Origin: a virus
Lineage: Duplodnaviria > Heunggongvirae > Uroviricota > Caudoviricetes
Direction: 5' to 3' (one strand)
Length of the DNA: 21,910 bases
Virus record (IMG/VR): IMGVR_UViG_2579778884_000002
The translations under genes were made by a program, and so were the position numbers. How positions within the stretch are numbered: position 1 is the stretch's first letter; every line of letters starts with the position of its first letter. Below are positions 2,858-7,721 of this stretch, piece by piece. Under the pieces are notes generated by a model that saw only the letters and a list, made by a program, of their open reading frames with translations, was not told the origin of the DNA and searched no databases.

Positions 2858-3543
2858 ATACCCAATATTTACAGTATGTCCGCGAGCAACTCATTGTGGC
2901 TACCGCTGATTTGAGCGGAGCAACGAAAGGACAGCTTGAAGCCTGGCTGGAGCATGCACAATTTGATACTGGTACATACAAACGAAAGAAGCCGCGCATT
3001 CTGGATGAGGTAACTGGCAGGATGATTACGCTGGATAATCCGCCGATTTCCGGTAAGCAGTTGTACGCAAAAGGTTCATCCATTGCACTGGTCAGCCAGG
3101 TTGAGTTCTCAACCTCGTCATGGCGCCGCGCGGTTCTGTCTCTCGAAGAACATCAGAAAGCGTGGTTGCTGTGGAGTTACAGCGAAAGTGTTCGCTGGGA
3201 ACATCAGGTCACCATAACGCAGTGGGCATGGAGCGAGTTTAAGACTCTGTTGGGTACCAGGAAAATTGCAGGTAAAACACTGGAACGTTTGAAGAAGTTG
3301 ATCTGGCTGGCGGCACAGGATGTGAAGAACGAGCTGGCAGGGCGTAAGACCTATGAATACCAGGAGCTGGCATCACTGGTGGGAGTGACATCAAAAAACT
3401 GGTCTGAGACATTTACTGAACGCTGGGTTGCAATGAAGCACATTTTTCTACAGCTTGATAGCCAAGCTTTATTGCTTTTAACGAAAACACGTTCAAAACA
3501 AAAGACCATATTTTCACAGCAAGATATTGCAAAACTGGATTAA
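2854..3543 (+). CDS. Putative late-gene antiterminator (Q-position protein), family uncertain
   Basis: 229-aa ORF whose start overlaps the ylcG stop (ATGA). It sits between the nin module and the late promoter/lysis cassette, where lambdoid phages encode Q. It has no cysteine (so no lambda-Q-type zinc finger), is Trp-rich, and does not resemble the lambda or phage 21 Q sequences I recall. Confidence 0.5.
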   Translation: MNTQYLQYVREQLIVATADLSGATKGQLEAWLEHAQFDTGTYKRKKPRILDEVTGRMITLDNPPISGKQLYAKGSSIALVSQVEFSTSSWRRAVLSLEEHQKAWLLWSYSESVRWEHQVTITQWAWSEFKTLLGTRKIAGKTLERLKKLIWLAAQDVKNELAGRKTYEYQELASLVGVTSKNWSETFTERWVAMKHIFLQLDSQALLLLTKTRSKQKTIFSQQDIAKLD

Positions 3544-3573
3544 AAATCATATATTTTATGTAAATCTGATATT

Positions 3574-3602
3574 TTGCCAATGTTGTACGCACTGGCAGTA
3601 AT
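3574..3602 (+). promoter_or_regulatory. Candidate late promoter (pR'-like): TTGCCA -17 bp- AGTAAT
   Basis: Good -35 hexamer TTGCCA (3574-3579), 17-bp spacer, weak -10 AGTAAT (3597-3602). Located just downstream of the Q-position gene and upstream of terminator hairpins and the holin gene. Confidence 0.3.
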
Positions 3603-3610
3603 CCAAATTC

Positions 3611-3647
3611 AAGCCCGAGGTTTAAAGCCTTGGGCTTTTCTGTTTCT
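3611..3647 (+). terminator. Intrinsic terminator-like hairpin (candidate pause/termination element of the late leader)
   Basis: aaGCCCGAGG-tttaaag-CCTTGGGCtt stem (8-10 bp, one G-U pair) followed by TTTTCTGTTTCT. Confidence 0.45.
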
Positions 3648-3724
3648 GAACGGTGAGTAGCCTTCCAACCTACCCCAGCCAGGGTGTCTTCAGCTGTTGA
3701 GTTGATATTGCTTAACCCTCTGTT

Positions 3725-3750
3725 GCCAGCTACATGCTGGCTTTTTTATT
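3725..3750 (+). terminator. Intrinsic terminator (tR'-like)
   Basis: GCCAGC-tacat-GCTGGC perfect 6-bp stem followed by TTTTTTATT. Lies between the candidate late promoter and the holin gene. Confidence 0.5.
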
Positions 3751-3864
3751 CCAGGCTTGCGGGGAGCATCAACTCCGTGCTTTGTCGTTAAATTACCCCG
3801 TGAGCCTGATTTCTGACATTTAACGTCCCGGCCTTTTGTCGGCGGCGAAACATTGGCTATTCAT

Positions 3865-4170
3865 ATGCACGAAAAAGAGAGCCTTGCCGGAGCGTTCTGG
3901 CTCGTTTTGCTGATCATCGCAGGTTGGGGCGGTCTGGTCCGCTACCTGATAGATGTGAAGCAGAGTAAAGCAACGTGGAGTTGGATAAATGCTCTGGCTC
4001 AAATAGTGGTATCAGGATTCACCGGTGTTATTGGTGGCCTGATCAGCATCGAAAGTGGATTCAGTATTTACATGATTCTCGCGACAGCGGGGATTAGTGG
4101 TGCGATGGGTTCGGTTGCACTGACGTACTTCTGGGAACGACTGACAGGGGTGAAAAATGCAAAATCTTAA
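3865..4170 (+). CDS. Holin, class I (three predicted transmembrane segments), non-lambda-S type
   Basis: 101-aa product from the ATG at 3865 with three hydrophobic stretches (LAGAFWLVLLIIAGWGGLV, WINALAQIVVSGFTGVIGGLI, FSIYMILATAGISGAMGSVALTYF) and a charged C-terminus. Immediately upstream of and overlapping the endolysin gene. The ORF-track start at 3853 is a TTG four codons upstream. Confidence 0.8.
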   Translation: MHEKESLAGAFWLVLLIIAGWGGLVRYLIDVKQSKATWSWINALAQIVVSGFTGVIGGLISIESGFSIYMILATAGISGAMGSVALTYFWERLTGVKNAKS

Positions 4171-4633
4171 TCCTCAGCGTAAAGCCTTCCTCGATATGTT
4201 GGCGTGGTCAGAAGGAACGGATAACGGGCGACAACCGACACGTAACCACGGTTATGATGTTATTGTTGGCGGCGAACTGTTTACTGATTACTCCGATCAC
4301 CCTCGCAAACTTGTCACGCTACACCCCAAACTCAAATCAACAGCCGCCGGACGTTATCAGCTTCTTTCACGCTGGTGGGATGCTTACCGTAAACAGCTTG
4401 GTTTGAAAGACTTCTCCCCCAAAAGCCAGGACGCAGTGGCATTACAGCAGATTAAAGAGCGTGGTGCTTTACCGATGATTGATCGCGGTGATATCCGTCA
4501 GGCAATCGACCGTTGCAGCAATATCTGGGCTTCACTGCCGGGCGCTGGTTATGGTCAGTTCGAGCATAAGGCTGACAGCCTGATTGCAAAATTCAAAGAA
4601 GCTGGCGGAACGCTCAGAGAGAGTGAGGTATGA
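4157..4633 (+). CDS. R: Endolysin R (lytic transglycosylase, lambda R type)
   Basis: 158 aa. From residue 7 onward it matches the lambda R sequence as I recall it ([20 protein letters not shown]...), with the catalytic Glu in WSEGTD. The N-terminal 6 residues differ from lambda. Confidence 0.95.
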
Positions 4634-5091
4634 GCAGAATAACCGCGATTATCTCCGCTCTGGTTATCTGCGTCATCGTCTGCCTTTCATGGGCGGTTAA
4701 TCATTACCGCGATAACGCGATTACCTACAAAGCCCAGCGCGACAAAAATGCCAGAGAACTGACGCTGGCGAACGCGGCAATTACTGACATACAGATGCGT
4801 CAGCGTGATGTTGCTGCGCTCGATGCAAAATACACGAAGGAGTTAGCTGATGCGAAAGCTGAAAATGATGCTCTGCGTGATGATGTTGCCGCTGGTCGTC
4901 GTCGGTTGCACATCAAAGCAGTCTGTCAGTCAGTGCGTGAAGCCACCACCGCCTCCGGCGTGGATAATGCAGCCTCCCCCCGACTGGCAGACACCGCTGA
5001 ACGGGATTATTTCACCCTCAGAGAGAGGCTGATCACTATGCAAAAACAACTGGAAGGAACCCAGAAGTATATTAATGAGCAGTGCAGATAG
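4630..5091 (+). CDS. Rz: Inner-membrane spanin Rz (i-spanin)
   Basis: 153 aa with an N-terminal TMD ([20 protein letters not shown]) and a coiled-coil periplasmic domain. Matches recalled lambda Rz. Start overlaps the R stop. Confidence 0.95.
4850..5032 (+). CDS. Rz1: Outer-membrane lipoprotein spanin Rz1 (o-spanin), embedded in the +1 frame of Rz
   Basis: 60-aa ORF entirely inside Rz. Lipoprotein signal [20 protein letters not shown] and proline-rich [15 protein letters not shown]. Matches recalled lambda Rz1. Confidence 0.95.
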
Positions 5092-5095
5092 AGCT

Positions 5096-5111
5096 GCCCA
5101 TATCGATGGGC
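5096..5111. terminator. Hairpin between the convergent Rz and bor genes (possible bidirectional terminator)
   Basis: GCCCAT-atcg-ATGGGC perfect 6-bp inverted repeat between the Rz stop (5091) and the bor stop (5123). No strong U-tract on either strand. Confidence 0.3.
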
Positions 5112-5122
5112 AACTCATGCAA

Positions 5123-5416
5123 TTATTGTGAGCAATACACACGCGCTTCCAGCGGAGTATAAATGCCTAAAGTAATAAAACCGAGAAATCCATTTACGAA
5201 TGTTTGCTGGGTTTCTGTTTTAACAACATTTTCTGCGCCGCCACAAATTTTGGCTGCATCAACAGTTTTCTCCTGTCCAATTCCCGAAACGAAGAAATGA
5301 TGGGTGATGGTTTCCTTTGGTGTTACTGCTGTCGGTTTGTTTCCAACAGTAAACGTCTGTTGAGCACATCCTGTAATAAGCATTGCCAGAGCGGCAGAAA
5401 ACAACATTTTTTTCAT
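5123..5416 (-). CDS. bor: Bor outer-membrane lipoprotein (serum-resistance lysogenic-conversion factor)
   Basis: 97-aa product from the internal ATG at 5416 (MKKMLFSAALAMLITGCAQQTFTV...), matching recalled lambda Bor with lipobox LITGC. The longer ORF-track version (to 5464) adds 16 N-terminal residues. Confidence 0.95.
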   Translation of the reverse strand: MKKMLFSAALAMLITGCAQQTFTVGNKPTAVTPKETITHHFFVSGIGQEKTVDAAKICGGAENVVKTETQQTFVNGFLGFITLGIYTPLEARVYCSQ

Positions 5417-5896
5417 CTTATTATCCTGCATTGTTAAAAACGGCAGAATCCTATGTGACAACAATTAAACGATAGTTAAATGGATTGATGAAAATTAAAA
5501 CTACACAGGTGGGCTCAGACTATTGGAGGAAGTTGGGGACACTCAGAATCCTGTGGAATGAAATAAACCGGTCTATCCGTCCATTACCCTTTTAGCTGCG
5601 CTGTATCGTCGCCGTATTCCCGCATTAACCATGACCGTAGCCCGACGGGGAATTCCTTCTGCGTGAGTGTGCGGGAATAATTAAAAACGATGCACACCGG
5701 GTTTTTACCGCGTTAATGATTCGCGGGTTTATCCCGGTGCGATGGTGGAAGAAACAGGAAGCTGTATTACAGAAAGTGCTACTACTGTATCCCGATGCGA
5801 TGTATGTAATGTGAGTCAGATAATGGCACAGGATGTGGTGATGTGGCAGTCTGGAACACAGGATATATTGTCAGAATAAGACCCGTAGGAATAAAA

Positions 5897-6223
5897 ATGA
5901 AAAGACGCCTTTTACTACTTTTTCTGTTATCTGTCCTGGCAGTGGGATGCTCGCAGCAAAAAGCTGATGAGCCCCGGCAATTAGTGACGGTGTATCCACG
6001 ATATCCGGAATATGCTGCAGCAAATTATATCAAGGGGCTGGTTGAGGTTAAGTTCGATATTGGTGCTGATGGGACTGTGACACGGATCGTTTTTCTCCGC
6101 TCAGAGCCTCATAATTTGTTTCGTGATGAAGTGGTGAAGGCCATGGCGAAATGGCGATTTGAAAAGAATCGCCCCTGTCAGGGAGTGAAGAGACAATTTA
6201 TCTTTACGCCGTCACGTCCTTGA
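5897..6223 (+). CDS. Lipoprotein consisting of a TonB C-terminal domain (TonB_C-like accessory gene)
   Basis: 108-aa product from the ATG at 5897 (AGGA 6 nt upstream). Signal peptide with lipobox MKRRLLLLFLLSVLAVGC. The mature part aligns with the E. coli TonB C-terminal domain: YPRYPEYAAANYIKGLVEVKFDIGADGTV...EPHNLFRDEVVKAMAKWRFE versus TonB YPARAQALRIEGQVKVKFDVTPDGRV...KPANMFEREVKNAMRRWRYE. No proline-rich spacer and no N-terminal TonB membrane anchor. Confidence 0.75.
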   Translation: MKRRLLLLFLLSVLAVGCSQQKADEPRQLVTVYPRYPEYAAANYIKGLVEVKFDIGADGTVTRIVFLRSEPHNLFRDEVVKAMAKWRFEKNRPCQGVKRQFIFTPSRP

Positions 6224-6315
6224 TGCTTCCAGGTAGAGAGGGGCTGGAAGCAGGAGAAAAATGAAAGAGCCAGCGGTTATATTTTTGTCATGGCTGACGA
6301 GGAATGATGGAAGAA

Positions 6316-6338
6316 GGCGTTGTATGCCACACAACGCC
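6316..6338 (-). terminator. Hairpin immediately downstream of the minus-strand small ORF (candidate terminator)
   Basis: GGCGTTGT-atgccac-ACAACGCC perfect 8-bp stem. On the minus strand it is followed by UUCUUCC. Sits 8 nt past the stop of the 6346..6525 ORF. Confidence 0.4.
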
Positions 6339-6345
6339 TCACTGT

Positions 6346-6525
6346 TCATTTCTTCTTTTTCTCTGGTGGAACCCGATGAATAAGAGTTGCACTGGTTTCC
6401 GATGAGATGGCGATATACTCGGGCAAAGTATGCTGGCAGTTTTCCAACTGGTCAAAAATACCTGCTCTCGTCTGTTGCAATGCCTGCAGCATGCGGCGGC
6501 AATGCGCCTTGCTTTTACTAACCAT
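6346..6525 (-). CDS. Hypothetical small basic protein (59 aa)
   Basis: Internal ATG at 6525 preceded by GAGGAAGGAAAG (SD-like), giving MVSKSKAHCRRMLQALQQTRAGIFDQLENCQHTLPEYIAISSETSATLIHRVPPEKKKK. Followed by the hairpin at 6316-6338. No family recognised. The longer ORF-track version (to 6699) overlaps the upstream ORF. Confidence 0.3.
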   Translation of the reverse strand: MVSKSKAHCRRMLQALQQTRAGIFDQLENCQHTLPEYIAISSETSATLIHRVPPEKKKK

Positions 6526-6586
6526 CTTTCCTTCCTCTATCAGTCGCTGCGTGAACTCATCATGGAATACCAGGTAAATGCGGATG

Positions 6587-6838
6587 TTATCGGTTTTGGC
6601 TACGCAGCATAGTACAAAACGGACAGGTGCATCCCGGGACGGGGGAGGCGTCACATGTCCCTGTGATGGTTGTTCCGGGTAATGTACTGTGTGGGGCATA
6701 AAAATGTCCGATAATTTTACTTTCTACCGCAGTTAGTTGATTCGTTGGTCCTGGTAGCACATTGGGCGAGGATTTAAATGCCAGGCAACTGAAGGATGAT
6801 GTCGCAAGGGAGATAGCGAGAATATTTCTGATTTTCAT
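6587..6838 (-). CDS. Hypothetical small secreted Cys-containing protein (83 aa)
   Basis: ATG at 6838 with GAGG 9 nt upstream. N-terminal signal-peptide-like MKIRNILAISLATSSFSCLA. C-terminal CDASPVPGCTCPFC cysteine cluster. No family recognised. Confidence 0.3.
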   Translation of the reverse strand: MKIRNILAISLATSSFSCLAFKSSPNVLPGPTNQLTAVESKIIGHFYAPHSTLPGTTITGTCDASPVPGCTCPFCTMLRSQNR

Positions 6839-6949
6839 TTGATGATGCCTCTGTGTGAAATGACGGTAAACGACGCACTTGTGCCGGCACATAATAGCAA
6901 GCACCATAATAGATCAGATTCGATTCTTGCTGTAAGTGATAATTATTCT

Positions 6950-7160
6950 CGTTTTCGGGTCCTTTCCGTCGATCCAACAGGTTACGGGGCGGCGACCTCG
7001 CGGGTTTTCGCTATTTATGAAAATTTTCCGGTTTAAGGCGTTTCCGTTCTTCTTCGCCGTAACTTAATGTTTTTATTTAAAACACTCCCTGAAAAGAAAG
7101 GAAACGACAGGTGCTGAAAACGGGCTTTTTGGCCTCTGTCGTTTCCTTTCTCTGTTTTTG
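6950..7160 (+). other. cos: cos site region (cosQ-cosN-cosB) of a lambda-type packaging system; cosN cohesive-end sequence GGGCGGCGACCT at 6987-6998
   Basis: The 12-nt lambda cohesive-end sequence occurs at 6987-6998, flanked by sequence matching the recalled lambda right end (GGGTCCTTTCCG...ACAGGTTACG) and left end (CGCGGGTTTTCGCTATTTATGAAAATTTTCCGGTTTAAGGCGTTTCCGTTCTTCTTCG). Nu1 starts 178 bp downstream. Confidence 0.9.
7039..7153 (+). promoter_or_regulatory. cosB: terminase small-subunit binding sites R3, R2, R1 with an intervening A/T-rich IHF-type site
   Basis: CGTTTCC core repeated at 7039-7045 (R3) and 7140-7146 (R1), and inverted as GGAAACG at 7100-7106 (R2). A/T-rich stretch TAACTTAATGTTTTTATTTAAAAC lies between R3 and R2. 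Confidence 0.75.
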
Positions 7161-7175
7161 TCCGTGGAATGAACA

Positions 7176-7695
7176 ATGGAAGTCAACAAAAAGCAGCTGG
7201 CTGACATTTTCGGCGCGAGTATCCGTACTATTCAGAACTGGCAGGAGCAGGGAATGCCCGTTCTGCGAGGCGGTGGGAAGGGTAATGAGGTGCTTTATGA
7301 CTCTGCCGACGTCATAAAATGGTATGCCGAAAGGGATGCTGAAATTGAGAACGAAAAGCTGCGCCGGGAGGTTGAAGAACTGCGACAGGCCAGCGAGACA
7401 GATCTCCAGCCAGGGACTATTGAGTACGAACGCCATCGACTTACGCGTGCGCAGGCCGACGCACAGGAGCTGAAAAATGCCAGAGACTCCGCTGAAGTGG
7501 TGGAAACCGCATTCTGTACTTTCGTGCTGTCGCGGATCGCAGGTGAAATTGCCAGTATTCTCGACGGGATCCCCCTGTCGGTGCAGCGGCGTTTTCCGGA
7601 ACTGGAAAACCGACATGTTGATTTCCTGAAACGGGATATCATCAAAGCCATGAACAAAGCAGCCGCGCTGGATGAACTGATACCGGGGTTGCTGA

Positions 7696-7721
<26 letters not shown>
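7176..7721 (+). CDS. nu1: Terminase small subunit Nu1
   Basis: 181 aa, matching recalled lambda gpNu1 (MEVNKKQLADIFGASIRTIQNWQEQGMPV...), with the N-terminal winged-HTH DNA-binding region. Confidence 0.97.

Follow-up and report, generated by a model that had tools for sequence, protein, structure and literature searches.

Within the window, i.e., the whole 21,910-nt stretch analysed here (IMG/VR virus record IMGVR_UViG_2579778884_000002, Caudoviricetes), a gene for a 108-aa TonB_C lipoprotein (5897..6223, +; ATG at 5897 and TGA at 6221-6223, from the ORF list and the sequence) lies between the lysis genes and the cos site. Upstream of it are Rz (4630..5091, +; Pfam Phage_lysis) and the embedded Rz1 (4850..5032, +; Pfam Rz1), which form the phage's own spanin pair, and bor (5123..5416, -; Pfam Lambda_Bor, E=4e-30), which is not part of the unit. 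Downstream are cosQ (6957-6963) and the cos end (about 6986), both mapped by identity from the phage 21 annotation, and the gene for the Nu1 small terminase subunit (7176..7721, +; Pfam Phage_Nu1, E=3e-100), which bounds the slot. Thus the position between bor and cos, as given in an earlier reading made from the letters alone (the sequence-only reading), was borne out.

Accessory genes, bor being one of them, are known to insert in the interval that separates the lysis genes from cos. Across 119 related viral loci in IMG/VR the order was uniform, namely lysis cassette, (bor), TonB_C gene, (HNH gene), terS and terL, with all genes co-stranded except the optional bor on the opposite strand, and it spanned at least three types of holin/endolysin and several of terminase. 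As this order is constant and bor is frequent but optional (about 45 of the 119 loci), the partner of the TonB_C gene is the junction between lysis cassette and small terminase gene, not bor. The same slot is occupied in a Klebsiella phage, in JLK-2012 and in Serratia, Salmonella (plasmid-borne) and Rahnella prophages; the gene often lies 80-130 nt from Rz/Rz1 on the late-operon strand, and in one Serratia prophage it is found ~80 nt past Rz1 with a 4-nt overlap with terS. The sequence-only reading had assigned the gene to a lysogenic-conversion slot next to bor: expression in lysogens (see below) and the adjacent bor of this window agree with it, but the optional presence of bor among the related loci and the late-strand orientation do not. 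The gene proved to be widespread in lambdoid prophages, as that reading had suggested might be checked, but its distribution is tied to the lysis/terS junction rather than to bor.

The lysis cassettes themselves differ, with a lambda-type holin and R endolysin in the window (3853-5091) and a pinholin and SAR endolysin in phage 21 (4522-5692). Since the TonB_C module sits behind at least three lysis-cassette types, a mosaic junction is placed near a conserved non-coding element of ~110 nt (5597-5705, +) between bor and the TonB_C gene. Between the window and JLK-2012 this element has about 93% identity, compared with 73% for the TonB_C coding sequence, and 432 phage records contain it (lambda, 933W, VT2-Sakai, many Stx phages and Salmonella S135), always on the late-gene strand and after Rz/bor. 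It contains a stem of 10-11 bp, GTATTCCCGCA / TGCGGGAATAC-like, with compensatory changes at five base pairs (in five phages) and with G-U pairs that suit an RNA of the + strand only. No Rfam match was obtained for the element, and its identity with a known sRNA, AsxR, AgvB and STnc100 included, was thus rejected.

The signals immediately around the gene are sparse. A ribosome-binding site (AGGA, 5887..5890, +), which is also given in the phage 21 annotation, is located 6 nt 5' of the ATG. A longer version of the protein from a GTG at 5843 is unlikely, because a 13-nt indel in JLK-2012 disrupts that frame just 5' of the ATG; a small ORF at 5742-5879, present in the phage 21 annotation, was rejected as well, its frame not being kept in JLK-2012, where the indels are not multiples of three. 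Comparison of the upstream region with JLK-2012 revealed a block, TTGTyAGAATAAGAC, that is kept between allele A (that of the window) and allele B (that of JLK-2012) while the flanks have diverged, and inside this block lies a candidate extended -10 promoter, TGTCAGAAT (5869..5877, +). A consensus scan found no canonical sigma-70 -35/-10 pair around the TonB_C gene. The terminator scan reported none there either, including at an 8-bp hairpin directly 3' of the stop (6225..6251, +), which is without a U-tract and so is not a canonical terminator.

Fur regulation of the gene was considered and rejected: there was no convincing Fur box 5' of the gene, the best match being 11/19. The best Fur-box-like match of the whole window, 15/19 to GATAATGATAATCATTATC at 6938 with an overlapping match of 14/19 (span 6932-6956), is AT-rich, adjoins cosQ and lies downstream of the TonB_C gene, and is probably due to chance. 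The 0.7 kb from the gene to cos (6224-6960) is without a convincing gene and is treated differently by annotators: + strand ORFs of 40 aa and 60 aa are called in phage 21, and the 60-aa one alone by PGAP. On the minus strand there are ORFs of 106 aa and 117 aa, one of them with a signal-peptide-like start, MKIRNILAISLATSSFSCLA; none of the ORFs of this stretch matched Pfam.

A TonB C-terminal domain behind a lipobox signal peptide

The N-terminus of the protein reads MKRRLLLLFLLSVLAVG-C18-SQQ, with a basic n-region, a hydrophobic core and a lipobox-type cysteine in the context LAVG-C-S, so that signal peptide and lipobox, as read from the sequence, occupy residues 1-18 (5897..5950, +; Cys18 codon at 5948-5950). 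Among nine lipoprotein-type relatives Cys18 is invariant. The residue at +2 is Ser, Thr or Ala, never Asp. Under the lipoprotein sorting rule, Asp at +2 leads to retention in the inner membrane. The protein thus has both features of an outer-membrane lipoprotein, i.e., a lipobox cysteine after a signal peptide and no Asp at +2, and with Ser at +2 it is predicted to be lipidated and sorted to the outer membrane.

Cys18 is followed by a tether, SQQKADEPRQ (residues 19-28; 5951..5980, +; pLDDT about 58-82), which corresponds to TonB 146-155 in the gapless alignment, and only these ~10 residues separate the cysteine from the fold. A transmembrane anchor and a proline-rich spacer are absent from the 108 residues; the protein therefore has neither the N-terminal, ExbB/ExbD-coupling anchor nor the spacer of a functional TonB transducer. 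A second, unpaired cysteine, Cys94 (6176-6178; context RPCQG), is located in the loop preceding beta3; it is found in allele A and in the allele B of JLK-2012 and is replaced by Arg in other allele B variants. In the periplasm it might take part in an intermolecular disulfide.

The remainder of the chain, residues 29-108 (5981..6220, +), is a TonB C-terminal domain equivalent to TonB 156-235, with beta3 at residues 94-103. Pfam TonB_C (PF03544) matched residues 33-99 with E=7.3e-13 and 49.2 bits, about twice the gathering score of 24.6, and NCBIfam tonB_Cterm (TIGR01352) gave 47.4 bits against a cut-off of 27.1, whereas the NCBIfam TonB equivalog models matched over their C-terminal ~80 positions only (45-69 bits against cut-offs of 265-448). 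Residues 23-103 align with E. coli TonB 150-230 without a gap (phmmer, E about 1e-14; PDB 1u07, 2gsk and 2grx), at 38-40% identity to E. coli TonB (P02929), whose fragments were the best matches among PDB sequences. At a constant offset of +127 the identical residues include Y36/Y163, P37/P164, F53/F180, G59/G186, F75/F202, W86/W213 and F103/F230; TonB Y215 is replaced by F88.

An AlphaFold2 model built from 21 family members had pLDDT above 96 at residues 30-100 (87.8 overall). Its Foldseek superposition on TonB gave 1.0 Å (79 residues) for the BtuB complex (2gsk_B) and 0.9 Å for the FhuA complex (2grx_C), with probability 1.0 and rmsd of 0.9-1.5 Å across 2grx_C, 2gsk_B and 1u07. The matches to TolA domain III were weak, and a structure search found no TonB-like fold in the viral structure library. 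Thus both the profile search and the structure prediction that the sequence-only reading had called for returned a TonB C-terminal domain, the latter within 0.9-1.0 Å of receptor-bound TonB, and its description of a lipobox signal fused to this domain, with anchor and spacer missing, holds by sequence, Pfam and model alike.

The mature protein covers about TonB 145-235, the last four TonB residues being missing. TonB 158-235, the segment bound to the TonB box of FhuA in the co-crystal structure (PMC2533080), falls wholly within the region covered. One position of potential weight is not conserved: the equivalent of TonB Q160 is Tyr in the window protein, Leu in allele B and His or Asn in other relatives. 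In TonB, Q160 has been implicated in TonB-box contacts, and Q160L is a classical tonB suppressor of TonB-box mutations (PMC2533080).

Among the PHROGs the protein matched PHROG 1267 ('Rz-like spanin', E=5e-43), phrog_34172 (function unknown, E=2.5e-15) and four families weakly (E>0.1). A hallmark of o-spanins is a gene embedded in or beside the i-spanin gene, and another is a short, proline-rich mature part without a globular fold. An Rz1-like o-spanin was accordingly rejected, as the window has its own Rz/Rz1, the TonB_C gene lies ~800 nt further on, past bor, and the product is a globular domain of 91 aa; the spanin label of PHROG 1267 is probably a propagated annotation error. In the RefSeq entries of VT2-Sakai and ArgO145, an 'Rz-like spanin' feature is laid over the conserved element matched at window 5597-5705.

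Occurrence, selection and expression

Over 5400-6700 the window shares 100% identity with phage 21, ev017 and PhiR47_2 and 99.9% with Perceval, a prophage of LF82. Public annotations already name the domain: phage 21 gene CPT_21_73, with a product 100% identical, is annotated as "TonB C-terminal domain protein", and other labels are "TonB fragment" (Perceval), "TonB family protein" (RefSeq) and 'partial tonB-like', with a TonB-type label in ev017 too. A full-text literature search found no paper on a phage TonB-domain lipoprotein. Of 5426 complete E. coli genomes, 1225 (23%) carry the gene, 1203 of them at >=99% identity; Nissle 1917 is among the carriers. Lambda and 434 share only 5400-5705 with the window and lack the TonB_C gene, which is thus accessory and not a part of the lambda core; a conserved core gene with an established unrelated function was the outcome named beforehand as one that would weaken the exclusion proposal.

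Allele B, found in Stx1a-converting phages, JLK-2012 and Lys8385Vzw, encodes a protein 72% identical to that of allele A, likewise 108 aa long and equipped with a lipobox. Comparison of the two alleles gave a dN/dS of 0.12 at dS about 1.5, uniformly over signal peptide, tether and domain, and length, lipobox, stop position and C-terminus were kept. Thus the gene is under strong purifying selection and is not a decaying fragment.

In RNA-seq of LF82 the gene was classed as an accessory "moron" expressed 8-fold over the prophage background (PMC9928086 Table 1). Over five LF82 conditions, log2(FPKM+5) was 5.0-6.6 for the TonB_C gene, compared with 2.3-3.7 for Rz, 2.3-4.3 for terS and 4.2-7.2 for host tonB (PMC9928086 S1/S4 tables). 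Therefore TonB_C mRNA and host tonB mRNA are at about the same level in the LF82 lysogen, and as transcription of the TonB_C gene is independent of the flanking late genes, it should have its own promoter between bor and the ATG. Late transcription in lambdoid phages proceeds by Q-antiterminated read-through. Being on the late-operon strand, the gene should be transcribed late in lytic growth too, and so would not be purely a lysogenic-conversion gene.

In an exhaustive HMMER search, short relatives (105-135 aa) with 38-46% identity and alignments beginning at residue 1 were obtained from Salmonella enterica (>1000 contigs), the Klebsiella pneumoniae complex, Gibbsiella, Rahnella, Erwinia and Pantoea; the Erwinia and Pantoea copies are plain chromosomal genes without phage or bacteriocin context. 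Most relatives have a lipobox and some have an ordinary signal peptide, and the latter, from sequence, would be soluble periplasmic TonB domains.

Several relatives lie near bacteriocin genes. In Serratia, 68 nt separate the gene of a soluble 119-aa relative from a downstream colicin-E1-type immunity gene, and a pore-forming colicin gene is convergent to both; this three-gene unit spans 3426-5923 of one examined locus and recurs in several others. It is found on chromosomes and plasmids with differing flanks and is thus a mobile unit, which argues for a self-protection role of the TonB_C relative. The Serratia colicin shows homology in its N-terminal region to the part of colicin A that binds TolB/TolA, and the position of the TolB box reads DGDSMTV, which resembles the colicin B TonB box GDTMVV. 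With a translocation domain of the colicin A kind, i.e., Tol-type, the association is not specific to TonB-dependent import, and a clear TonB-dependent colicin was not upheld.

In Klebsiella IncF plasmids the TonB_C lipoprotein gene is followed on the same strand by one for an 'Exc2 family lipoprotein', adjoining a cloacin-type operon (TonB_C/Exc2 stretches at 5956-7032 and 3456-4532 of two examined loci). Of the 906 plasmids with the cloacin operon, a single one had the full arrangement; the adjacency is therefore incidental, and this klebicin/Exc2 linkage was downgraded as evidence for a bacteriocin role. Another relative, of 111 aa, is located within a cellulose-synthesis (bcs) locus, directly 5' of a gene with a weak match to a Tle1-like type VI lipase (4001-6034 of that examined locus). 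A possibility raised by this arrangement is that some family members are periplasmic immunity-type proteins.

A proposed TonB-box decoy and its alternatives

The reading best supported by the analysis, which we put forward tentatively and at a little short of an even balance, is that the protein is a TonB-box decoy without energy coupling whose benefit is exclusion. The lipoprotein would be anchored in the inner leaflet of the outer membrane, facing the periplasm, with the TonB C-terminal domain as its sole folded part. The short tether and the predicted outer-membrane site would hold this domain at the periplasmic face of TonB-dependent transporters, in the plane of their TonB boxes and far from ExbD. 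There its exposed beta3 edge would pair with transporter TonB boxes by strand addition, as TonB does, and it might also bind the TonB boxes of incoming group B colicins. Having no ExbB/ExbD link, the decoy could neither pull nor transmit force, and would compete with scarce host TonB and dampen TonB-dependent import. Prophage and host would gain in that fewer TonB-dependent phages (T1 and phi80 types), group B colicins and microcins enter, at the cost of some siderophore and B12 uptake, and the protein would be produced from its own promoter in lysogens and by late-operon read-through in lytic growth.

Several lines of evidence bear on such a decoy. Relative to E. coli TonB, the fold of the C-terminal domain (about 150-239), its gapless alignment, YP motif, aromatic core and the TonB-box-pairing beta3 are all the same; on the other hand, the phage protein is without transmembrane helix, proline spacer and ExbB/ExbD route, has a lipoprotein signal instead, ends at the equivalent of 235 and is predicted to hang from the outer membrane, whereas TonB reaches out from the inner one. 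By sequence, the retention of the conserved TonB core residues and of the beta3 strand speaks for a decoy, and the variation of the Q160-equivalent residue across the family speaks against it. Also to be set against it are the co-orientation and tight packing with late genes, which would fit a lytic-cycle role as well, and the Erwinia and Pantoea relatives that have neither phage nor bacteriocin context. Iron-starved cells contain far more transporters than TonB. With its mRNA at about the level of tonB, a stoichiometric decoy may thus block only partially. The PADLOC anti-phage defence models gave 0 families for the protein at E up to 1.

Precedents exist for inhibition by parts of TonB. Secreted or overexpressed TonB periplasmic domain was described as inhibiting TonB-dependent transport and iron import, with FecA and FhuA transport affected (Howard, Herrmann, Stratilo and Braun 2001, J Bacteriol 183:5885, as summarised in PMC9841981), and TonB proteolytic fragments competitively inhibit energy transduction (bioRxiv 10.1101/2022.09.26.509584). 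As far as that summary describes them, the engineered secreted fragments resemble the phage protein in being an anchorless periplasmic TonB C-terminal region, but were lab-made from host TonB, soluble and overexpressed, whereas the phage protein is natural, diverged and predicted to be lipid-anchored; the naturally soluble family members would be their close equivalents.

Phage proteins of similar general design are Cor (phi80, N15 and HK022) and Llp (T5), small outer-membrane lipoproteins that block phage entry by acting on FhuA at its periplasmic side (PMC11436027; PMC9586334). Like these, the TonB_C protein is a small phage lipoprotein, predicted to be in the outer membrane, for which an action on TonB-dependent transporters is proposed; Cor and Llp are FhuA-specific, whereas a TonB-domain decoy would hit the coupling step that all TonB-dependent transporters have in common. 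Homology to Cor or Llp was not found: TonB_C was the only Pfam match, and none of the PHROG matches, judged by description, is an exclusion protein. The likeness to Bor/Iss of lambdoid prophages, which are small outer-membrane lipoproteins encoded between lysis genes and cos and expressed in lysogens, does not extend to the fold, which is unrelated, or to the strand, which is opposite, and bor is often missing from TonB_C loci.

Three other explanations were weighed against the decoy. That the gene is a decaying, functionless fragment of a captured tonB is what database names such as 'TonB fragment' and 'partial tonB-like' imply, and identity to host TonB is only about 40% with two thirds of TonB missing; however, a signal peptide and lipobox have been gained, relatives occur in at least five genera, the gene has transcription of its own, and at 72% protein identity, with dN/dS at 0.12 and synonymous sites saturated, the 108 residues, lipobox and stop are kept. 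Selection analysis and conserved architecture together effectively refute it and leave it extremely improbable. Considerably less remote, though still unlikely, is that the domain has been repurposed for another ligand and acts late, e.g., as an envelope or lysis accessory, with peptidoglycan, Lpp or OmpA as candidate ligands, or else a beta-strand epitope in some other protein, e.g., in the translocation domain of a colicin or in a partner of the TolA/TolB type. The gene is always directly 3' of the lysis cassette on the late strand, sometimes within 80 nt of Rz1 and overlapping terS, and PHROG 1267, which contains the protein, is labelled Rz-like spanin, but the window already supplies Rz and Rz1, the lysis-cos slot is known for accessory insertions such as bor, and the gene is transcribed in lysogens, in which the lysis genes are silent. 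A related fold is found in TolA domain III, which likewise binds partners by strand addition. Its weak Foldseek matches to the model, and the Serratia relative that accompanies a colicin with a colicin-A-type Tol-binding region, would suit a ligand of that kind; on the other hand, the protein matches TonB rather than TolA and keeps essentially every conserved TonB C-terminal residue.

The third explanation retains the TonB-box occupancy and differs in what is selected, namely the physiology of the lysogen: damped TonB-dependent iron or B12 uptake, or damped FecA-type signalling, would shift the Fur regulon and, for example, raise the expression of iron-repressed prophage genes such as stx1. 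Allele B does reside in Stx1a-converting phages, but most carriers are not Stx1 phages, and reduced iron uptake is usually costly. Perceval (allele A) also carries sitABCD, an alternative metal importer that is expressed in the lysogen, and the transcript stays close to that of tonB over conditions, the macrophage interior included, both of which agree with such tuning; the absence of an upstream Fur box (best 11/19, as above) speaks against it. We judge this explanation improbable, somewhat more so than a repurposed domain.

The decoy reading may be extended to the family. A stand-alone TonB docking domain, lipid-anchored or soluble, in temperate phages of Enterobacterales and at some colicin loci may serve as a broad exclusion or immunity factor, a generalisation that we regard as possible but doubtful. 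If true, it would mean that the shared coupling step of all TonB-dependent transporters is disabled, rather than one receptor masked, and that roughly every fourth E. coli genome, those of Nissle 1917 and LF82 among them, encodes a so far undescribed class of superinfection exclusion or bacteriocin tolerance. What is new here is the architecture and context of an already known domain, for which a potentially general exclusion mechanism is plausible. If the decoy holds, prophages would have a general means of protecting their hosts by poisoning the coupling step, and carriers would respond differently to phages of the T1 and phi80 types, to group B colicins and microcins, and to siderophore-antibiotic conjugates, with a bearing on phage therapy host range, colicin and microcin competition, cefiderocol-type uptake and iron physiology; given a carriage of 23% among complete E. 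coli genomes and the relatives known from Salmonella and Klebsiella, such effects would be of practical relevance.
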